Notes under the pieces: generated by a model
What the model was told of the DNA's origin: nothing
The model's input: only the letters and a program-made list of their open reading frames with translations
Databases searched by the model: none
Translations under genes and position numbers: made by a program
Shown here: piece after piece, positions 287 to 38,705 of the stretch
Numbering within the stretch: the first letter of the stretch is position 1
Layout of the letters: the number at the start of each line of letters is the position of its first letter
UHGV virus genome: UHGV-0176211
DNA length: 39,415 nucleotides
Reading direction: 5' to 3' (one strand)
Source: a virus

Positions 287-772
287 ATGAATAACTTTGT
301 TGAAATTACCTCAAGAATTGGTCGCATGTACCAAGATTTTCTTATAAGTGGAAAGGGGGCTGGCGACATCATAGAGGAAATTGACAAGCTAAGTGCAGAG
401 CTGAGAAGGAATGGGTGTGTTAATTCTATCTTTTTTGAAACTTTGCTAAAGCAAGGCTTCATGTTTGACATGATTAATTACAACAAAGTCGCACCCAGTG
501 CTTCGCAAAAATCATATGTGTACGTTCTGCATGCTGAAGATAGTGGGCTAACAAAAATAGGGTTTAGTCGCAGGGTTAATAAACGAATTTCAGAGATATC
601 TCGCATGAGTGGTGGGAAGCTAAATCTAATTGCAAAGATTCCTGCCGATAGAGAGCTTGAAACCAAATTGCACCAAAAATATTACAACTATAGGTCGCAC
701 GGGGAGTGGTTTAGCCTCAATCGTTGTCATTTGAAAGAGCTAAAAGAAATGCCTGGTAACGAACTGAAATAA
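287..772 (+). CDS. T5orf172 (GIY-YIG-like) domain protein
   Basis: 161-aa ORF; C-terminal half shows YVYVL..KIGFS..R..E..EWF spacing typical of T5orf172/GIY-YIG-like domains. Family recalled, not searched. Confidence 0.5.
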   Translation: MNNFVEITSRIGRMYQDFLISGKGAGDIIEEIDKLSAELRRNGCVNSIFFETLLKQGFMFDMINYNKVAPSASQKSYVYVLHAEDSGLTKIGFSRRVNKRISEISRMSGGKLNLIAKIPADRELETKLHQKYYNYRSHGEWFSLNRCHLKELKEMPGNELK

Positions 773-18152: not shown

Positions 18153-18656
18153 TTACAGCCCCAACAGATGGTCAGCAACCATGTTTGCTGCCTTATAAGC
18201 TATAGCTGCCTCATCAATGGTGTTGAATCTCCCAAGAGTTATGTTTTTACCTGAGAGATGTATCTGAGCTTGCCATTGATTTCTGGCTTGACAGAAAGTT
18301 ACCCCCTTGATTCCAGTATTGCTATTTCGAGGTCCGACATTTAACGCATTTACGACCCTGCTAACATCTCTAAGGTTTGAGATTGCGTTATTTCTTCTGT
18401 TTCTATCAATGTGGTCAATCTCTTGTTTTGGCCATTCGCCATATACATACAGCCAGGCAAGTCTATGTGCAAAATATCTTACGCCATCAATACTAATTGC
18501 GTTATACCCACAAGGAGTGATTGTGCCAGCAGCTTTACCAACAGCGCCTCTGGCGCTTAATTTCTTTTTCCAGGTGAAAATTCCTGTTTCTTTATTGTAA
18601 TCTAGAACCTCCATAAGGCGCTCCCGAGTTACTACCTCGTGACGTCTCTTACTCAT
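18153..18656 (-). CDS. HNH endonuclease with AP2-like DNA-binding domain (homing-endonuclease-like)
   Basis: 167 aa; HNH motif [18 protein letters not shown] and AP2-like segment [37 protein letters not shown]. Confidence 0.8.
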
Positions 18657-18669
18657 TATTTTCTCCGGA

Positions 18670-21366
18670 ATGTTTATTATGCCAAATCAATCATACAACG
18701 TTGTCGTTTCACAACCAAGTAACTTATTTACTTTAGCTCGCTCGTTTAAAGCAAATGCCAATGGCAGAATTTATATCGGTAAAATTGACACTGACCCGGT
18801 AAATCCTGAAAACCGGATTCAGGTTTATGTTGAGAATGAAGACGGTTCTCACGTTCCTGTTTCGCAACCAATCATCATTAACGCTGCTGGTTACCCGGTA
18901 TATAACGGGCAAATAGCCAAGTTCGTAACTGTGCAAGGCCATTCTATGGCTGTTTATGATGCATATGGTGCTAAGCAGTTCTATTTTCCTAATGTGCTGA
19001 AGTATGACCCTGATCAGTCATTGAAATATGTAGAAGGGGCATTGCTTGTTACTGACTTAGGTAATGGGACGTTTAAGAATAGTAGCAAAGACGTTGCCAT
19101 TGGGGATAATCTAACAGGAACCAATTTTATTAGAATAAACGGCGGCGTCTATAAATGCACTCCAGTTGCAACTGGAATTGTTACTGAGATCAAAGATAGA
19201 TACATTATCGCAGGCGGGGTTAAAAGCTACCTGTCTCATATTTCCAGACATGTCAGTGGTACGCGTAGGCCGCTGAACTGGAAATTAGAATTCAGCATCA
19301 TAGACAATGAGATTACCGCAGATCTTAAAGGTCAGTATGGTTATACGACCATGGGATTTCAGGGGATTTACATAGACAGCAATGATGGAATGGTATACAT
19401 CGGCTGGCAGACGCTAAACCCCGCATCGGTATGGGTTACGGTGCATGACTGGGCAACAGGAGCATTGGTAACACGTCTTCATTTTCCGAATAACGTTGGT
19501 GCACCAGAAGGCATCCACGTTTACAGAAAAGCAGGGCAGCGCTATATTCTACTGCCGTACAGCCCATCCCGCACTATCAGAATTTACCCTATCGGAGACC
19601 CGCGCACGCTAGCTGATAAAACGCAGATCACAAACTTCACGGAATCACCCAAACTTGGAGTGCGATATCAGTTCAGTGGTTTTGGTAATACCCTGCTATA
19701 CGAAAACGCGGACATGGGTTGGCCGAAAATTTTTGATGTTGAGACAGGTGTATCCAATATCTTTAACACACTGGATATTAACAGCCTTATAGAAGGATCT
19801 TATAGTCCAATGGGGACTATTACGGTTGATGCAAATGTTGGAGGTCGCGGAGCCGGTAAACCAAAACGGCAGGGTGTCGCTCTTGGTTCTCAACGGATAT
19901 TTGCTGGTATTGGTGCATCTACCACGGCGGGATCTGGAAATACTTTCGCAGGGTTGCAGGGTTATATTGAGTACAGCCATTCTGGTTCAGAATTAGGTCA
20001 GTACCTGCTGTCACCTGCAGATTTCAAAACATACTGGGATAGTTATTCAGGGAAGAGTGTTTACTCCACTGAAAATGAGGGGGTGCAGTCTTGTGATATT
20101 TCTGGCTCTGAGGAATTGTATCTTCTACAGTCTATTCGCTATGGCAATGGGGGCGGATCAAATTATAGGACTTTAAACATCATTCGCGCTAACTGTCCAT
20201 CTAATGAACCTGGAACAGTAGACATGAGTCCGCTATCCAATGCCGCATCACAGTTATTTAACCCTCGCGGAAGGGTGATTAACGCTGGCCGTCACCCTGT
20301 AAACCCGGCTGATGGTATTGCGCTATTTACATCGGCACAAGCTATTTGTGACTATTTGCGGAATACAGATGCAGGTAGATATGTGACATATCTTGAACAG
20401 GATATGCCACTGTTTGAAGGTGGGCCATCTGCGCCAGGACAGATGACACTGCCAGCATACTGCATATTGCAGATCGACTTCATCAACGGCGATACCTGGG
20501 AAATTACAGTTAATGGAACCAACAGGGCTAATAATTATACAGGAAGGATTTCCAAAAACGGCGGGTACAACTCTTTTACTAAGGTGTCCTCCCGCAGCAT
20601 GTCGATTCTCGGATCCCCTGGTCTGGTTGATGTATCAATTCGCTCACCTAACTCACCAAATCTTCCAGAATTTGCTGGAGACTGGTCTACTGGTGTAAGT
20701 ATAGGAGAAGCAGGTGGGAAGACAAACTGGCAGCCAGAAGGAACAGGTAACGGAGCATTATGGGAGTCAGGATATGCAAAAAACCGTGTGTTGCAGATAT
20801 TCATGTCCACAACATCAAAACTGTTCTTCCGCTACGCAGGCGATGCTATTCGCGCAGGTAACACAGGCTGGGCTGAGGCATGGTCGTCGCTGAACACGAC
20901 CGTCGATTCAAGTGGTTTCATCAAAAAAGCCTCTCCGGTTGTGAAGATTTTCTCAGACGGTAGTAGTGAAACAAATCGCGAATCAGATGGGGTAACCGTC
21001 ACACGGCTGGCATTGGGTGAATATCTGATTGAGGGTTGCGTAGGTCTGAATGCAGATGCTTCATGGGGTGGGATTGATGGTGGATTTGAAATACCGCAGG
21101 ACCGAAACAAGCAGCCGCTCATCTGGCTGGATTATGTTGTTAACCAAGATGGATCTGTGTTGGTGAAAACGTTTCACCGCACTCATGATAACTCGCCCGT
21201 TTTTGCACGTAACGACATACCTGGTGTTTCGAACGGTGACCCGATCGACATTCCTGCTAATCAATTCGTTTCTGTGCGAGTACAGATGCCTGAGGATTCT
21301 GCATGGAATAAGCTTAAGGAACAACTAAATAAGGCTGAATTGATAGAAGATGATGTTGTGGAATAG
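18670..21366 (+). CDS. Tailspike protein (P22-type head-binding domain plus distinct receptor-binding domain)
   Basis: 898 aa; first ~115 aa ([38 protein letters not shown]...[13 protein letters not shown]...NVLKYDPDQ) match the P22 gp9 N-terminal domain as recalled; remainder not P22-like. True start may be ATG 18679. Confidence 0.85.
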
Positions 21367-24345: not shown

Positions 24346-25053
24346 TTATACCGCCTGTTTTAGTTCGTTAACTCTGATGTTCATTACCTGAACGCATTTA
24401 GCCTGCGCATCCTCATTGCCAGCCATTAATTGCCAGTCATGCTGATAACGTTCTATGAGTTTTTTCTTGTCAGTTTCTGTTGATGCATAATCGCTGAAGT
24501 CTTTCAGGATTTGTTCGCAGTCAACCGATGGAGATTTCTGGTTGGTATTTTCTGGTGATGATTTGTTACCTGATGCTGGGATTGCCCATCCCGGCAGCGA
24601 TGGAGGGAGCCAGTAAAATCCTGTTCCATCCTTCAGTTTTGCCCTGTGCCACCCCTGCTTTTTATCGAGAGATGTTTGTGCGAAACCTTCCTCAAGGTTA
24701 TACAGATACCGACCGATTCCCCACTGAACGGCAGCGCGCTTCATTGCACCGGAACGACCACCTTTGACGGCTTCTACCTGCGTGTTTTCAGCAGCATCCC
24801 ATTTGGTTACCCATTCGGAATCAATCTTTATCGATATGCCGCATTCAACGCCGCCGTTGTTGGGAATATCGCGGTATTCATTGCGCCATCCTGCTTTGCC
24901 ACAAACATCGTCAAGGCGTTTCATGATTGCCCGGTTCGTGACATAAGCCAGCACCATAGCCCACACCTTGCCATCGCGTGCTTTACCGCTTTGCTGTATT
25001 CGCCATTCGATATCTTCAGGGCAGAATGGCTCATCGAATTTATTCAAATCCAT
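24346..25053 (-). CDS. Single-strand annealing recombinase (Rad52/Erf-type SSAP)
   Basis: 235 aa; KGGRSGAMKRAAVQWGIGRYLY resembles the Rad52/22-family motif; immediately upstream of ssb. Confidence 0.6.
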   Translation of the reverse strand: MDLNKFDEPFCPEDIEWRIQQSGKARDGKVWAMVLAYVTNRAIMKRLDDVCGKAGWRNEYRDIPNNGGVECGISIKIDSEWVTKWDAAENTQVEAVKGGRSGAMKRAAVQWGIGRYLYNLEEGFAQTSLDKKQGWHRAKLKDGTGFYWLPPSLPGWAIPASGNKSSPENTNQKSPSVDCEQILKDFSDYASTETDKKKLIERYQHDWQLMAGNEDAQAKCVQVMNIRVNELKQAV

Positions 25054-25061
25054 AATTCACC

Positions 25062-25232
25062 TCAGAATGGACATGGCCCAAGGAAATAACGCTGATTTAA
25101 TACTTCAGTCTTTGCCGCATTTAAAAATACTCGAACACCTTCACGATCTCCCTTCTGGCGATACATTAACGCCTGCTGCGTGTACATGCGTCTCTGTAAC
25201 TTGCTCTCCTTCACTGTGGTTGCAAGTGACAT
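25062..25232 (-). CDS. Small ORF, possibly arf-like
   Basis: 56-aa ORF found by eye with GGAGAT RBS, immediately upstream of the SSAP gene (the position of arf in P22). Confidence 0.3.
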   Translation of the reverse strand: MSLATTVKESKLQRRMYTQQALMYRQKGDREGVRVFLNAAKTEVLNQRYFLGPCPF

Positions 25233-25294: not shown

Positions 25295-25580
25295 TTAAAT
25301 CAAACCCTCATCAGTCAGCTTGCCGACAATCCACATCTCCCCTTCGGCGTAGAACATCGCCTGAGAGCGGCCATTTTCTGTCTCCCGCATGATTCCGTAG
25401 CCCTTGTCGATAAACCATTGCTGGAAGGCACGACCTCGCTTAACAGACCGGTTGTACACGCCAAACTGCTCGAGCTGCTTGTTCAGCCACACGGCGGATT
25501 GCCCGAACTTCTGCGCCACCTGCGACGCGTTATAAAGATTGTTGCGCTCAACGATGCGATCGTAAACCTCGGCTTTCGGC
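25295..25580. repeat. Inverted-repeat copy 1 (antirepressor C-terminal segment)
   Basis: Reverse complement aligns with 37745..38031 at ~90% identity by eye. Confidence 0.6.
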
Positions 25581-25966
25581 GCTGCGATTGATAGTTTCTC
25601 CTGTGCGATCAGCTTTTGTTCATACTCATTAGCCCATGCTCTGGCAGCTTCCGCTGGGTTGGCGAAGTCCGGTAGCGCTGCTTTGCGCACCTGCTCTTCC
25701 AGTTCCTGCCAGCGATCGATAATCCTTGCACGAAGTTCGACACTGTAACCAGAAACCACCAGCAATGTGTCACGCTTAGTTAAAAGCCATTCTCTTTGCG
25801 ATTGGTTGTTATATCCCTTGTAACTTACTGATTTACTTGATTCACTCAAATTTGAGTGAATGAAATCAATATCTCTTAATACATTGTCATGCCGTTTGCC
25901 TGTCAGTTCCGCAATCTCACGGCTAGACATTGTTTTTACTTCTGCGGTACTTATTAAACTGTTCAT
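25295..25966 (-). CDS. Antirepressor (Rha-type N-domain plus KilAC-type C-domain)
   Basis: 223 aa; N-terminal MSSREIAELTGKRHDNVLRDI, C-terminal ~95 aa nearly identical to the C-terminus of the 37297..38031 product. Confidence 0.65.
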   Translation of the reverse strand: MNSLISTAEVKTMSSREIAELTGKRHDNVLRDIDFIHSNLSESSKSVSYKGYNNQSQREWLLTKRDTLLVVSGYSVELRARIIDRWQELEEQVRKAALPDFANPAEAARAWANEYEQKLIAQEKLSIAAPKAEVYDRIVERNNLYNASQVAQKFGQSAVWLNKQLEQFGVYNRSVKRGRAFQQWFIDKGYGIMRETENGRSQAMFYAEGEMWIVGKLTDEGLI

Positions 25967-26388
25967 GATTTCATCTCCTCTCTCGCCGTCTCGTCGCGCA
26001 GGGGTTTAACCAGCATCAAATAGCCGGATTCAGTGAATACCCTCAACCCTCTAGTGGGGATGTCAAAAAACGGGAAGGCCGTTTTTTTATCAAAATCAAT
26101 AACATAAGTATCCTCGCCATCAATAAAATAGCTTGAGTTTCTTGTGTAGCTGTCACGAATTGTAGTTAACGGAACGCCATGCACAACAGCCACCTGCTGA
26201 AATGTAACCACACGCTCACCATTAAACTCGCAAGCTATTAGTGGGATATCATTAATCATCACGCTGTTCATGATTTTCCATCCTATCGTTGATATATTCA
26301 AATCAGGTTCTTTATCGCCGCGATAAAAACAATTTAAGACTCGCATCCTATCCCGAGCTTTATCATCATCAAAAAATGTAAAACTCAT
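25963..26388 (-). CDS. ORF6N-type domain protein
   Basis: NDIPLIACEFNGERVVTFQQVAVVHGVPLTTIRDSYTRNSSYFIDGEDTYVIDF parallels the N-terminus of the 256-aa product at 35577..36347; start uncertain (26388, 26271 or GTG 26403). Confidence 0.5.
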   Translation of the reverse strand: MSFTFFDDDKARDRMRVLNCFYRGDKEPDLNISTIGWKIMNSVMINDIPLIACEFNGERVVTFQQVAVVHGVPLTTIRDSYTRNSSYFIDGEDTYVIDFDKKTAFPFFDIPTRGLRVFTESGYLMLVKPLRDETAREEMKS

Positions 26389-26537
26389 TTCCTGCGATAC
26401 CACGGAAGGTTGACAGCTGATTTCATCGCTTTATTTGCTTCAAGCCACATTTTTGAGTCACCAATAAATCTGGCTATTACTGCTTTGTTCTGTGCAGCAC
26501 GAAGCATCTGGTGATTGATGGCTATTTCATTGCGCAT
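26385..26537 (-). CDS. Small ORF (50 aa)
   Basis: Found by eye; its stop overlaps the ATG of the downstream ORF6N gene (ATGA). Confidence 0.25.
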   Translation of the reverse strand: MRNEIAINHQMLRAAQNKAVIARFIGDSKMWLEANKAMKSAVNLPWYRRK

Positions 26538-26719
26538 AATAAGACCTCAACTCTTTTCCATCCGTCACGTAATTTACGGGTGATTCGTTCAAGTAAAGAT
26601 TCGGAAGGGCAGCCAGCAACAGGCCACCCTGCAATGGCATATTGCATGGTGTGCTCCTTATTTATACATAACGAAAAACGCCTCGAGTGAAGCGTTATTG
26701 GTATGCGGTAACGCCGCGC

Positions 26720-27088
26720 TCAGGCGGCTTTGATAGTCATATCATCTGGATCAAATATTCCTGATGTATCGATATCGGTAATTCTTATTCCTTCGCTACC
26801 ATCCATTGGAGGCCATCCTTCCTGACCATTTCCATCATTCCAGTCGAACTCACACACAACACCATATGCATTTAAGTCGCTTGAAATTGCTATAAGCAGA
26901 GCATGTTGCGCCAGCATGATTAATACAGCATTTAATACAGAGCCGTGTTTATTGAGTCGGTATTCAGAGTCTGACCAGAAATTATTAATCTGGTAAAGTT
27001 TTTCCTCTGTCATTACGTCATGGTCGATTTCAATTTCTATTGATGCTTTCCAGTCGTAATCAATGATGTATTTTTTGATGTTTGACAT
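26720..27088 (-). CDS. Hypothetical protein with acidic C-terminus
   Basis: 122-aa ORF in the early-left operon; function unknown. Confidence 0.4.
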   Translation of the reverse strand: MSNIKKYIIDYDWKASIEIEIDHDVMTEEKLYQINNFWSDSEYRLNKHGSVLNAVLIMLAQHALLIAISSDLNAYGVVCEFDWNDGNGQEGWPPMDGSEGIRITDIDTSGIFDPDDMTIKAA

Positions 27089-27104
27089 CTATTCATATCC
27101 TCAC

Positions 27105-27134
27105 AGATAAAAAATCGCCCTCATACTGGAGGGC
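27105..27134 (-). terminator. Terminator-like hairpin within the leftward operon
   Basis: On minus strand GCCCUC-CAGUAU-GAGGGC followed by GAUUUUUU. Confidence 0.45.
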
Positions 27135-27262
27135 AAAGAAGATTTCCAACAATCAGAACAAGTCGGCTCCTGTTTAGTTACGAGCGACATTGCTCCGTGT
27201 ATTCACTCGTTGGAATGAATACACAGTGCTGTGTTTATTCTGTTATTTATGCCAAAATAATT

Positions 27263-27505
27263 TTAATCAGCAATAAAATCTTCTGGTAATTTATCAACCA
27301 CTTGATGGCTTATTATCAGCCATTTGCCATCCTTCGTCCCGTATGCATATTTCTGGCCTTTTATCATCATGTGTTCAGCTACTGCCTTAACTGCCTGTTC
27401 GGTTACATCTTCTTTCTTTCCTACCCACATTCCTTTTTCAGTGTTTAATGTTCCTTGAAAAATACGACCACTTAATGGGCTTACGCCCATAGTTTTTACT
27501 CTCAT
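27263..27505 (-). CDS. Hypothetical small protein
   Basis: 80-aa ORF. Confidence 0.4.
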   Translation of the reverse strand: MRVKTMGVSPLSGRIFQGTLNTEKGMWVGKKEDVTEQAVKAVAEHMMIKGQKYAYGTKDGKWLIISHQVVDKLPEDFIAD

Positions 27506-27569
27506 GTATCAGTCCTCAAACAAGTGGTTTGCTGCCAAAACAATGAACCATCCGGAAATTCCAGATAGT

Positions 27570-27797
27570 TCATAATTCACTCTTCAATACTTCCAACTTA
27601 CTAATCGCCGAAAGATATCCGCGCTGATAGGGCATCATCATTCCTTCGAGCTTGCCACTTCTTAACTCCTCCCTGAGCAATTGTATTGCTTGATCAATAA
27701 CCTCTGCCTTAGCGTCCTTTATGGCTTGCTTGCGGGGCTTTGCTTTCTGCTTTGGCAGATTTCTCAAGCATGATGGAATGTATGTCTGATTCATCAC
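27570..27797 (-). CDS. Hypothetical small basic protein
   Basis: 75-aa ORF immediately downstream of the N-like gene. Confidence 0.4.
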   Translation of the reverse strand: MMNQTYIPSCLRNLPKQKAKPRKQAIKDAKAEVIDQAIQLLREELRSGKLEGMMMPYQRGYLSAISKLEVLKSEL

Positions 27798-28070
27798 TTA
27801 CCTCGCTGTCAGTTGTTTTGATTTCCGGTAGCCTGCCGCGTAAAGAGCTACGTTTGGAAGACAAGTTGAACCTTCATATTTTCTGGTCAACGTTGTCAGA
27901 GTTATCACTTCTGCTCTCATTGCTGGTTTGCGCTTGCATTGCAAGACCACTCGTGAAGGGGTTGGCCTGTGTAGCTTGTCGGAGCTGATCGCCTCCTGAC
28001 TTTGCAGATTTGCACGACGAGCTCTACGGCGAGAAGCTGCGGTTCCTTTAAATTCTGTTTTTCTGGACAT
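27798..28070 (-). CDS. N-like transcription antiterminator
   Basis: Start at internal Met with GGAGG RBS; Arg-rich motif TAASRRRARRANLQ; C-terminus LPNVALYAAGYRKSKQLTAR resembles P22 gp24 as recalled. Confidence 0.6.
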   Translation of the reverse strand: MSRKTEFKGTAASRRRARRANLQSQEAISSDKLHRPTPSRVVLQCKRKPAMRAEVITLTTLTRKYEGSTCLPNVALYAAGYRKSKQLTAR

Positions 28071-28179
28071 AGATTCCTCCCGAATAAACTTTGGCGATGC
28101 AATCTCGAAGCCCCTCCTGAGACGGTTGCTTCGGCATTGCATCCCACAGCTTATGTGGTTGGGTGATCTGGCTTTTCAG

Positions 28180-28215
28180 CCACGTAGTCGAGTGTTCGAC
28201 GTTGTTTAAAGAGCC
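28180..28215 (-). promoter_or_regulatory. nutL-like site (boxA plus boxB hairpin)
   Basis: Minus-strand GGCTCTTTAAACAAC, then hairpin GTCGA-ACAC-TCGAC, then TACGT; nearly the same architecture recurs at 29152..29183. Confidence 0.55.
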
Positions 28216-28260
28216 TGCCAGTCTGTTCCGTTTGGCTTCCAGCTTCCTGCTGATGACTAA

Positions 28261-28289
28261 ATAATACGGGACGTAGTTGATTAAGTCAA
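28261..28289 (-). promoter_or_regulatory. PL-like promoter
   Basis: Minus strand TTGACT, 17-nt spacer, TATTAT, upstream of nutL and the N-like gene. Confidence 0.55.
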
Positions 28290-28430
28290 CACAAACACTC
28301 TAAATGTGGTTAGTTTTTTTATAACTCTATGTATTTTATTGATTTATATTTTGGGAAAGAAAGTTGGCGCCAAGTTTTCACCAAAAGTGGTGAAATCCCT
28401 AAACCCTGTAGCCCGTCAAGAAGCTGGCCC

Positions 28431-28692
28431 GTGGTGCAGGAGATTCACCAGGGTGGTGCAGGAGATTCACCAGGGTGGTGCAGGAGATTCACTAGGGTGG
28501 TGCAGGAGATTCACTAGGGGGTGGTGCAGGAGCTGCACCCAGAACCAGTCACTCTTTTGAACCAGTCAATGAACCTAAAAACATTATGTTCGAACATGTC
28601 CGAACAGAGTGTGAAAAAACTCCTGACCGTCACGAAGAAACCGACAAGGCATTCGAGGAAATATTCTGGTGTGCAGGCATGCGGAAAGCCGG
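28431..28692. repeat. Direct-repeat copy A of an origin segment (iterons plus AT-rich flank)
   Basis: Near-identical by eye to 29986..30225 inside the O-like gene, with one extra 22-bp unit. Confidence 0.8.
28434..28538. repeat. Iteron array A (four 22-bp units plus a palindromic fifth)
   Basis: GTGCAGGAGATTCAC core at 28434, 28456, 28478, 28500; palindromic GTGCAGGAGCTGCAC at 28524. Confidence 0.8.
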
Positions 28693-28716
28693 TCTCGGCA
28701 ACCATTAGTTACGTCA

Positions 28717-37296: not shown

Positions 37297-38031
37297 ATGT
37301 TGGAAGTTAAATACAGTTACACCAACAAGAGAGAGGAATGTATGAGCAGTTTAATTAACGCTGCAGAAGTGCAAACCATGTCCAGCCGTGAGATTGCGGA
37401 ACTGACAGGTAAACAGCATGGGCATGTGTGCAGAGATATAAGAGTTATGTTGTCAGAGTTAGGAATCTCTGAGCAATCCAAAATTGGATTTGTCGAGAGA
37501 ATTAATAACTTAGGGCATGCCGTCAAAGATAAAGTCTACTTGTTGAACAAGGAAGAATCTCTCTGCCTTGTAGCTGGGTACAGCGCTGCTCTGCGTATGA
37601 AAATAATTAATCGCTGGCAAGAGCTGGAAGAACAAGAAAGTAAACCGGCATTTCCTGTCCCCCAAACTTATCTTGAGGCGCTCAAGGCGCTGGTGGTAGC
37701 AGAGGAAGAGAAAGAGCGCCTTGCACTGGAGAACAAGGAAATGAGTCCTAAAGCCGAGGTTTACGACCGCATCGTTGAGCGCAACAATCTTTATAACGCG
37801 TCGCAGGTGGCGCAGAAGTTCGGGCAATCCGCCGTGTGGCTGAATAAACAGCTTGAGCAATTAGGGGTATACAATCGTTCAGTTAAGCGTGGGCGCGTCT
37901 TCCAGCAATGGTTTATCGACAAAGGCTACGGCATCATGCGCGAGACTAATAATGGACACTCTCAGGCGATGTTCTACGCCGAAGGGGAGATGTGGATTGT
38001 CGGCAAACTGACTGATGAGGGGTTGATATGA
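37297..38031 (+). CDS. Antirepressor (Rha-type N-domain plus KilAC-type C-domain)
   Basis: 244 aa (possibly starting at Met16, 37342); MSSREIAELTGKQHGHVCRDI; C-terminus near-identical to the 223-aa paralog. Confidence 0.65.
   Translation: MLEVKYSYTNKREECMSSLINAAEVQTMSSREIAELTGKQHGHVCRDIRVMLSELGISEQSKIGFVERINNLGHAVKDKVYLLNKEESLCLVAGYSAALRMKIINRWQELEEQESKPAFPVPQTYLEALKALVVAEEEKERLALENKEMSPKAEVYDRIVERNNLYNASQVAQKFGQSAVWLNKQLEQLGVYNRSVKRGRVFQQWFIDKGYGIMRETNNGHSQAMFYAEGEMWIVGKLTDEGLI
37745..38031. repeat. Inverted-repeat copy 2 (antirepressor C-terminal segment)
   Basis: Aligns with the reverse complement of 25295..25580. Confidence 0.6.
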
Positions 38032-38189
38032 GCAAGCGAAAGAAGAAAGCACCTGTGAGGACAGAGACTAAATTCACCAGATACATTCCACAGCAATTCC
38101 CAGACGCATTTAAACCATCAGAGATGTTGTCTGATGCTGAATGGTGGGGTGTCGCAAGAATCGTAATTCGCTTGAGAAGAATCGCTTAA
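38028..38189 (+). CDS. Hypothetical small basic protein
   Basis: 53-aa ORF read by eye; its ATG overlaps the upstream stop. Confidence 0.3.
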   Translation: MSKRKKKAPVRTETKFTRYIPQQFPDAFKPSEMLSDAEWWGVARIVIRLRRIA

Positions 38190-38198
38190 GATTCAAAA

Positions 38199-38705
38199 AT
38201 GATGGAGGCATATGGAATGAGCATAAGAGAACTAAACCTCACAAAAGATCAGCATGAGTGGCTGAATGGATGGCTTGAACTGTGGGGCGCATGGGTTTAT
38301 TCAGGTCGTCTGGAAAAGCGCATGAGCAGCGTAATAGCGAAGCTCATGGAGAGCGTAGAGCCGGGAAGGGTTATGACAAGGCCAATGTGTAATGATGATG
38401 ATGGAATGTTGATTTCTCAGGTCGTCGATTCCGTCATGTACATTGACAAGAAAGCCTTTGGCATCCTCCTCAGCTACTACGCTCATGGATCTTCCAAACA
38501 CGCCATTGCATCTTACTATCATCGCGTCGCAAGACCTCGCAAGATGTTATGCCGGGGCGGCGGGCGCATTCAAAAACCATCGCTCGCAACCTGTCGACGG
38601 GAAGTTGACGAAATCCTTAATGCCTCGTTGTTTATGATTTACCCGGTTCTGGATAGTGCGTTTAAAAACCGGAAACGTGTAGAGAAAATTAAACATGTAG
38701 CATAA
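38199..38705 (+). CDS. Late-gene antiterminator Q (phage 82/21 type)
   Basis: 168 aa; LELWGAWVYSG and RPMCNDDDGMLISQVVDSV resemble the Q-antiterminator family; lies just before the late promoter and lysis genes. Confidence 0.7.
   Translation: MMEAYGMSIRELNLTKDQHEWLNGWLELWGAWVYSGRLEKRMSSVIAKLMESVEPGRVMTRPMCNDDDGMLISQVVDSVMYIDKKAFGILLSYYAHGSSKHAIASYYHRVARPRKMLCRGGGRIQKPSLATCRREVDEILNASLFMIYPVLDSAFKNRKRVEKIKHVA

Follow-up and report, generated by a model that had tools for sequence, protein, structure and literature searches.

A 281-nt inverted repeat in a P22-like phage genome most probably represents a shared ANT/KilAC coding cassette of two accessory regulator genes

Results

Early region of the phage genome

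The window analyzed here is the whole stretch of DNA termed UHGV-0176211, which is 39,415 nt in length and is a contig of a short-read SPAdes metagenome assembly (ENA ERZ1034773 NODE_91). It represents a P22-like (Lederbergvirus-like) phage. The structural genes are those for a Sf6-type small terminase, terminase, P22 portal, coat, gp4, gp10, gp7, gp20, gp16 and tailspike, and the early region has a lambdoid layout. The phage has no integrase, and no gene of the size of cI is present as a target for an antirepressor.

In the leftward direction, a PL-like promoter (positions 28261–28289, minus strand, TTGACT-17-TATTAT) is found upstream of N (27798–28070, minus strand). N is followed by cIII with its Rfam thermoregulator, kil, an ORF6N gene, a gene termed here L-ant, orf56 (25062–25232, minus strand), which is a distal gene of the leftward operon, and the genes for a Rad52/Erf-type single-strand annealing protein (24346–25053, minus strand), SSB and an Abc2-like anti-RecBCD protein. 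The annealing protein is the phage's own recombination function and matches Rad52_Rad22 (PF04098, 1.5e-25) and PHROG 1097 'Erf-like'.

The rightward early operon starts with a cro-like HTH gene (28925–29140, plus strand). A promoter scan detected no canonical PR; by synteny, PR is probably located just upstream of this gene. The genes that follow are O-like genes, a primase-helicase gene, ninB, a PAPS-reductase-like gene, a Roi-like gene (35577–36347, plus strand), ybcO, rusA, ninH, a gene termed here R-ant, orf53 (38028–38189, plus strand), the distal antiterminator gene Q (38199–38705, plus strand) and the lysis genes. The Roi-like gene consists of ORF6N and a second ANT cassette, which is unrelated at the DNA level to the one described below. 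In all, five genes of this window are members of the KilA-N/Bro-N/Rha/ANT/ORF6N/T5orf172 network.

The inverted repeat

A repeat search of the whole window shows an inverted pair, with a left arm at positions 25299–25579 (minus strand) and a right arm at positions 37747–38027 (plus strand). The arms are 281 nt in length, 91% complementary, and are separated by 12,167 nt, in agreement with an earlier note on this DNA that had described an inverted repeat of ~285 bp with a separation of ~12 kb. When compared in coding register, with the stop codons included, the arms are 285 nt and have 28 mismatches (90.2% identity). There are 2 mismatches in the first ~98 nt of the alignment, thus the ~90% identity and the nearly identical first ~100 bp that had been reported are also found here. 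The longest exact runs between the arms are 77, 48 and 24 nt. The MAFFT pairwise alignment shows a sharp onset of homology at ...CC(T/G)AAAGCCGAGG and an end at the stop codon. The two arms bracket PL, PR, N, cro, the origin, the replication genes and the nin genes.

The left arm of a sibling contig, when compared with the right arm of the window by blastn, gives an E value of 4e-107. A chance origin of the repeat is ruled out by an E value of this size between the arms (about 1e-107).

Three weaker inverted matches, which are absent from the earlier note, join the same two neighbourhoods. These are I2 (positions 25984–26229 and 35619–35864, 246 nt, 72%), I3 (25869–25977 and 37331–37439, 109 nt, 80%) and I4 (25609–25675 and 35928–35994, 67 nt, 87%). 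The Roi-like gene is the source-type of I2 (ORF6N) and I4 (linker LPDF.NPAEAARAWANEYEQK).

The two genes that carry the arms

R-ant (37342–38031, plus strand) is located between ninH and orf53-Q and encodes a protein of 229 aa in public assemblies; a longer open reading frame of 244 aa starts at position 37297. L-ant (25295–25966, minus strand) encodes 223 aa. Both proteins consist of a Rha-N head, a linker and an ANT/KilAC tail. The ANT/KilAC domain (PF03374) spans residues 123–218 of the 223 residues of L-ant and residues 145–239 of the 244-aa R-ant frame, with scores of 38.9 and 40.5 bits, respectively (curated cut-off 25.3). The pRha domain (PF09669) scores 64.7 and 56.6 bits in the two proteins (cut-off 29.9). 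Both match PHROG 63 'anti-repressor Ant'. The earlier assignment of the right arm to the 3' end of an antirepressor gene is supported by the Rha-N and ANT domains and the PHROG match. By both domain scores, L-ant and R-ant belong to the class of Rha-N + ANT/KilAC regulators, where 'antirepressor' is only an annotation.

The arms start where the ANT domain starts (...PKAEVYDRIV...), in frame in both genes, and end with the stop codons. Each arm comprises the last 94 codons of its gene, with the stop codon at positions 38029–38031 in R-ant and at 25295–25297 in L-ant. The start of orf53 overlaps the R-ant stop codon in an ATGA. The two proteins are 66% identical overall; there is only about 50% identity in the N-terminal parts, compared to 4 differing residues in the ANT parts.

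The 96 aligned codons, which include the boundary codon and the stop codon, display 23 synonymous and 5 non-synonymous differences. This pattern shows that both copies are under selection at the protein level, and maintenance at the protein level implies that the repeat is a shared domain and not a non-coding element. An RNA element in the arms was considered and rejected: a scan of the whole window with Rfam at gathering thresholds detected the cIII thermoregulator only and gave no match within either arm. A cis-acting RNA or DNA element in general is unsupported, both by the Rfam scan and by distant homologues, in which the two parts of the arm diverge equally (see below). Antisense pairing of the two transcripts is also rejected, because the cassette is present as the same sense strand in both mRNAs.

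A search for full-length homologues reveals a large Rha-N + ANT family in Jersey-like Salmonella phages and in Klebsiella phages, with identities of 76% or less and with no chimeras among the homologues found. In IMG/VR the best relatives have 74–75% protein identity and siblings of the phage are absent. The R-ant region has no match in E. coli complete genomes, and a PDB sequence search with R-ant gave no match at E ≤ 1. In species-representative genomes a degenerate DNA pattern of the arm gave 0 matches. A protein-guided scan of the same genomes gave one match of 88%, which is located on a 13-kb scaffold from a nominal Taishania assembly; other matches are 53–60% and are from Acinetobacter and Psychrobacter. 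This allele of the cassette is rare in species-representative genomes. A search with the 94-aa arm peptide returned 4 proteins only and missed the window's own clusters, and is uninformative.

The left copy is part of a two-gene insertion

L-ant and an ORF6N-only gene (positions 25963–26403) form a two-gene cassette of 1,079 nt (25298–26376, minus strand) between kil and orf56-erf. L136, an E. coli prophage, is 97.2% identical to the window up to position 25297 and 99.2% identical from position 26377, thus positions 25298–26376 represent an exact insertion of two genes. The left edge of this insertion is the L-ant stop codon, which is also the outer edge of the left arm. The left module is missing from about 1,000 E. 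coli prophages in which the kil-orf56-Rad52 backbone is present. In phages HK75 and mEpX2, kil is directly followed by an orf56 homologue and erf, and the two-gene cassette is missing.

L-ant itself is of mosaic composition. A nin-region gene of Klebsiella phage phiKp_30 matches its Rha-N head and linker with 94% identity, and the match stops 24 nt into the arm; the head and linker of this type are followed by the ANT cassette. The linker (LPDFANPAEAARAWANEYEQK) is also used by the Roi-like gene of the window and by a Bro-N-ANT gene in sibling phage L122.

Alternative heads are found in the right slot

The slot of R-ant is empty in HK75 and mEpX2, where ninH is directly followed by Q. Both L-ant and R-ant are accessory genes. 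Sibling phages L119/L120 and L122 are near-identical to the window around the ninH-Q slot and have a truncated Rha-N remnant of 92 or 133 aa, which ends with ...EEEKERLALVIVG and a stop. The remnant is followed by Bro-N and AntA-ANT genes in L119 and by a Bro-N-ANT gene in L122, and then by the same orf53-Q. At the DNA level the ANT tail of the AntA fusion in L119 is 95.4% identical to the right arm of the window, and that of the Bro-N fusion in L122 is 97.5% identical. AntA (PF08346) and Bro-N (PF02498) are therefore alternative heads on the same tail.

The linker and the mosaic joint are at positions 37704–37746 (plus strand), directly upstream of the right arm. The window tracks the truncated Rha-N genes of L119 and L122 up to position 37729 and homology returns at position 37747, which places the head-tail joint 17 nt upstream of the arm. 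Identity to L122 is 99% up to position 37729 and 92.6–97.5% from position 37747, and between these points there are 468 nt in L122 vs 17 nt in the window. A 26-nt motif (window positions 37704–37729) is present twice in L119, where it brackets 1,485 nt that are missing from the window. As judged from these alignments, the inner edge of the arm probably represents a recombination joint at the domain linker, and the outer edge is a gene boundary. A conserved segment abuts a module that differs between near-identical genomes, as is characteristic of homology 'shoulders' at mosaic junctions. The joints probably resulted from homologous or homeologous recombination, with the Rad52-like annealing protein of the phage as the probable agent. 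The direction of the shuffling events could have been either insertion or deletion.

The arrangement in independent samples

The window is from a short-read SPAdes metagenome assembly, and a joining of reads from two phages, with the two copies not present in one genome, was considered. The repeat does perturb assembly, e.g., the sibling contig ERZ1034973 NODE_1092 ends within an exact run of the left arm. But the same arrangement is present in a ~40.9-kb contig assembled with MEGAHIT at k119 (ERZ19634781), where both genes are found about 11.9 kb apart, and since k = 119 is larger than the longest exact run, the MEGAHIT contigs are not collapsed at the repeat. The left gene is in the same context in ERZ28621959 scaffold_174 and ERZ1034882 NODE_154 (~40.8–41.0 kb), and the longest contig with the right protein is 40,955 nt. 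The arrangement recurs across independent samples and different assemblers, and an artefact of assembly is highly improbable.

Identity between the arms is patchy

The mismatches are not evenly distributed along the arms: there is 1 in nt 3–97, 22 are in nt 98–211 and 4 are in the remainder. Of the 28 codons that differ, 21 are located in codons 33–71 (Fisher p = 2e-5), and the longest run of identity extends over 25 codons (permutation p = 0.001). Both parts of the arm diverge alike in a set of 35 more distant homologues (0.23 vs 0.25 per site), which shows that the near-identical tract is not due to constraint at the nucleotide level. The patchy identity is thus a recombination footprint. 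In the left copy, the first ~95 nt separated from the right-hand allele far more recently than the middle part did.

A tract of this type may result from concerted evolution, in which gene conversion between the two copies within the lineage made the first ~95 nt near-identical. The 1 mismatch in the first 95 nt vs 22 in the following 114 nt is consistent with conversion, as is the absence of this contrast from the distant homologues. In siblings L107 and L108, the sole diagnostic site of the first part is in the right-arm state, such that the first 95 nt of the arms are identical. In addition, R-ant and L-ant of the window have in common a GAG (Glu) at a codon that is GAT (Asp) in L119 and L122. 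However, the right-type alleles of L122 and L119 are also near-identical to the left copy in the first part, and one recombination between phages that built L-ant from an L122-like linker plus cassette explains the tract equally well. The divergent middle part displays no conversion tracts in any sibling. Since L122 and L119 are equally close to the left copy in the tract, these sites accommodate conversion and an assembly of L-ant alike. The alternative to conversion is an independent acquisition of both cassettes from the same allele pool. Gene conversion within the lineage is a possibility that we regard as somewhat doubtful. If the copies still exchange sequence, which the near-identical first 95 nt may reflect, the repeat would have a dynamic side.

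Inversion between the arms

Recombination between the arms would have, as a formal product, an inversion of ~12.2 kb (positions 25580–37746) that contains the immunity-position, replication and nin genes. The earlier note had proposed that recombination between the arms would invert the replication/nin segment and reverse the early operon relative to its promoters. The arms are adequate for recombination, as their exact runs (77 and 48 nt) are longer than the ~30-bp minimal homology quoted in PMC2327257, and the inversion stands as the formal product. The proposed reversal of the operon does not stand, since the PL-like promoter, N and the cro-like gene (and hence PR) are within the segment and each promoter would keep its proximal operon. 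Inversion would swap the distal parts of the operons only, i.e., orf53-Q and the late genes would be joined to PL, and orf56-erf-ssb-abc2 to PR. As predicted from the two sequences, the hybrid genes would be in frame, would differ from the parents by 5 residues at most and would keep the ATGA overlap with orf53.

Rates of a comparable inversion are available from phage lambda. With inverted repeats of ~800 bp that flank pL and are identical or 4% diverged, inversion occurs at 3e-4 per generation with RecABCD; with repeats at 22% divergence, the rate is 3e-6 with RecABCD and 1e-4 with Red (PMC2327257). Host mismatch repair has little effect on the pL inversion (PMC2327257; see also PMC3945230). 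For 281 bp with 10% divergence, an extrapolation would give at most about 1e-5 to 1e-4 inversions per generation. Inversion at a low frequency is thus physically plausible for the two arms, but is without a demonstrated role.

It could be proposed that the arms exist, or are kept, as a recombination switch that flips the early control region between two isomers, with Q and the late genes expressed from PL or PR. The isomers would then alter the timing of lysis as a type of bet-hedging. The two exact runs that exceed the minimal homology are in keeping with a switch, as are the presence of a Rad52/Erf-type annealing protein and an anti-RecBCD gene in the phage, and the inversion of lambda with diverged repeats around pL at rates of 1e-4 (Red) to 3e-6 (RecABCD). 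With in-frame hybrids and the preserved ATGA overlap, the inverted isomer appears viable on paper.

The distribution of alleles, however, makes a switch very unlikely. Exact-protein look-ups are blind to chimeras, and cluster membership and typing of the diagnostic sites in sibling arms were used instead. A chimera would be ~98% identical to a parent and should fall in the 90% cluster of that parent, yet the 90% clusters of L-ant and R-ant, drawn from about 15 billion proteins, contain no chimeric protein. No chimeric arm is present among the sibling arms that encode the same proteins (4 left, 9 right). At the 28 diagnostic sites in sibling arms, all states are parental apart from a single synonymous site of the left arm in two siblings. 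The parental type is also found in all sibling contigs across an arm, ERZ1034882 NODE_154 included. The synonymous differences in the middle of the arm accumulate freely, each arm is independently explained as a piece of an accessory-gene insertion, and similar cassettes are found in other phages as tandem direct copies.

A related proposal is that exchange by erf/Rad52 continually yields a minority isomer, in which Q and the late genes are expressed from PL and the recombination genes from PR. In such an isomer Q would be ~2.5 kb downstream of PL instead of ~9 kb from PR, and a recombination-driven timing polymorphism would be present in a repressor-less P22-like phage. We consider this improbable to a similar degree. 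No recombinant molecules were found in the assemblies or protein clusters, which are consensus data where the expected frequency of 1e-4 or less would be invisible at 72-fold coverage of the contig.

The inverted geometry alone speaks for a programmed, site-specific type of inversion (Hin/Gin/Cin or shufflon), with the ends of the repeat as crossover sites. Pfam matches of genes checked across most of the window and in the siblings include no serine or tyrosine recombinase domain. The arms consist of 281 nt of coding sequence with scattered synonymous differences, unlike short conserved crossover sites, and the second orientation is unseen in sibling contigs that span an arm, although these are consensus assemblies and are insensitive to rare isomers. 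A programmed inversion is extremely unlikely.

Discussion

The repeat is very probably a case of coding paralogy, where one ANT/KilAC cassette is shared by two accessory regulators in divergent early operons, is kept similar by selection and is subject to domain shuffling, with no demonstrated inversion switch. The operons of L-ant and R-ant are divergently transcribed, and the shared tail therefore appears as an inverted repeat. In this view, the leftward early operon would have gained one Rha-N + ANT/KilAC gene, and the nin region of the rightward operon another. Selection on the protein keeps the 94-codon cassette similar, and the cassette serves as a unit of recombinational domain shuffling in which heads (Rha, AntA, Bro-N) are exchanged. 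The repeat is most economically read as a shared domain of two paralogues and not as a recombination device. These genomes directly show the anatomy of the repeat, the pattern of selection on it, its mosaic joints, the boundaries of the insertion and the constancy of the arrangement from sample to sample.

Domain shuffling in the KilA-N/Bro-N/Rha/ANT/ORF6N/T5orf172 group was reportedly described from protein architectures by Iyer, Koonin and Aravind in Genome Biology in 2002. As in that network, DNA-binding heads are combined here with a few C-terminal modules. The difference is that the joints are seen at the nucleotide level in near-identical siblings, with a joint of 17–26 nt and an insertion edge at a stop codon.

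A similar modular organization is found in AriS-like proteins, which have a conserved ANT/KilAC tail and alternating AntA/AntB, Bro-N or pRha heads (Azulay et al. 2022, PMC9043618). In AriS of Listeria phage phi10403S the KilAC domain inhibits the SOS response (PMC9043618). The regulators described here resemble the AriS-like proteins in that PF03374 is C-terminal and the same three head types are found on the cassette in the window and its siblings. AriS is from temperate phages of Firmicutes and has shown SOS inhibition; the resemblance of the window proteins to it is one of shared Pfam domains. Unlike in the AriS phages, the same tail is present twice, in opposite operons, and in a phage without cI or integrase.

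The location of R-ant is comparable to that of Roi of HK022 and of Roi and Ant of 933W and other Stx2 phages (names as annotated in the matched records), which are in the nin niche from ninF/ninB to Q and have a C-terminal ANT domain. Stx2-phage regions with Roi among their listed features align over the gene at positions 35577–36347, in matches that average ~96% identity. In contrast to the nin-region Roi and Ant genes, the genes of the repeat carry Rha-N as the head, and their ANT allele is a different one (about 25% nt identity in a comparison anchored at the stop codon). R-ant fills a ninH/Q slot that is empty in both HK75 and mEpX2.

Inverted homeologous repeats that bracket an early promoter are known from lambda constructs, where inverted IS10 or diverged oxa genes flank pL (the Kleckner/Ennis system). 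Such repeats recombine by Red/Rad52-like or RecABCD pathways to give inversion and hybrid genes (Martinsohn, Radman and Petit 2008, PMC2327257). The lambda repeats are engineered, are ~800 bp and bracket pL-N only, and their inversions were selected and measured. The repeat in the window is natural, is 281 bp and brackets both early promoters with the replication and nin genes, and no inversion was observed. The moderately diverged ANT cassette also resembles the 'shoulders' of mosaic junctions (Martinsohn 2008, PMC2327257; De Paepe et al. 2014, PMC3945230) in that it flanks swapped modules and the phage encodes a Rad52-like recombinase. It differs from the usual 'shoulders' in that it is duplicated in one genome and inverted.

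Conclusion

The feature is another instance of a well-known kind, i.e., paralogous ANT/KilAC regulators that arise from modular shuffling, and the repeat itself raises no new question. It does provide a worked example, at nucleotide resolution, of how a single ANT/KilAC tail recurs in a fixed slot behind Rha, AntA or Bro-N heads. Siblings from several metagenomes also show the two-gene cassette placed precisely between kil and erf. Domain repeats within one genome can break short-read contigs and can pass for structural elements. The two proteins may act on one partner through the common ANT domain, with the different heads binding to different DNA. If the tails do share a target, e.g., RecA/SOS as in Listeria AriS, their expression from both early operons would be notable in a phage without cI and integrase.

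Antirepressor-type genes and the inverted repeat

This one genome of approximately 39 kb contains five members of the Bro/Rha/ANT/ORF6N/T5orf172 shuffling network, at 287–772 (+), 25963–26403 (-), 25295–25966 (-), 35577–36347 (+) and 37342–38031 (+). The position downstream of the lysis cassette encodes a T5orf172/MUG113 protein in the window, whereas two related metagenome phage contigs (L110 and L119) have a Rha + ORF11CD3 protein there. Multiple copies of the ANT tail are common, since tandem copies are found in other phages: IMG/VR loci L008, L015, L081 and L085 carry two to three same-strand Rha-N + ANT genes spaced about 1.1–1.5 kb apart. Direct repeats, rather than inverted ones, are thus the usual arrangement.

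The gene at 37342–38031 lies between ninH and orf53-Q. Its equivalents are found in siblings L119/L120 (10001–12052) and L122 (2398–3538), where a truncated Rha-N remnant of 92 or 133 aa ends in LALVIVG* and is followed by Bro-N and/or AntA genes joined to the same ANT tail. Comparison of these siblings with the window captures a head swap at a fixed slot, with a joint of 17–26 nt.

The left arm of the inverted repeat (25299–25579) contains an exact-repeat run, and the 16.7-kb SPAdes contig of sibling L137 (ERZ1034973 NODE_1092) stops within it; positions 1–58 of L137 correspond to 25522–25579 of the window. The repeat therefore fragments short-read assemblies. In the L137 sample the tract has the right-arm state at its single diagnostic site.

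Putative homing elements

The primase/helicase (968 aa, 30601–33507, + strand) has Toprim and AAA_25 domains. Hint and LAGLIDADG homing-endonuclease domains sit mid-protein, at about residues 379–631, which indicates an intein within the replicative enzyme. The size of 968 aa is kept in most siblings; in L115 the gene is split, giving products of 811 aa and 160 aa. An HNH endonuclease gene (18153–18656, - strand; HNH_3, with a faint AP2 match) is directly upstream of the tailspike gene (18670–21366) and divergently oriented. The gene probably encodes a homing endonuclease of the free-standing kind.

Immunity position and origin segment

The O-like initiator gene (29723–30493) has its 5' end duplicated in tandem, at 83%, in an HTH_36 gene of 84 aa (29434–29688); the duplicated pair is 29408–29607 and 29697–29896. 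The cIII thermoregulator at 26602–26660 (-) (Rfam Lambda_thermo, 88.5 bits) is intact despite the phage having no recognizable cI or integrase.

No cI-sized ORF is present at the immunity position (28290–28900), between the PL-like promoter and the cro-like gene. Five 22-bp iterons (28409–28540) are found where cI is expected, and this region also has a second copy of the O-like gene's iteron-carrying stretch (compared at 29963–30225), with 220–243 nt that are 97–98% identical. The same arrangement, with a variable number of iterons, recurs in sibling contigs from other samples, which shows that the layout is real. There is also no integrase gene between the tailspike gene and the Rad52/Erf-type gene (24346–25053). 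Taken together, these features suggest a P22-like phage that naturally lacks a repressor, does not integrate and carries its origin segment in duplicate.
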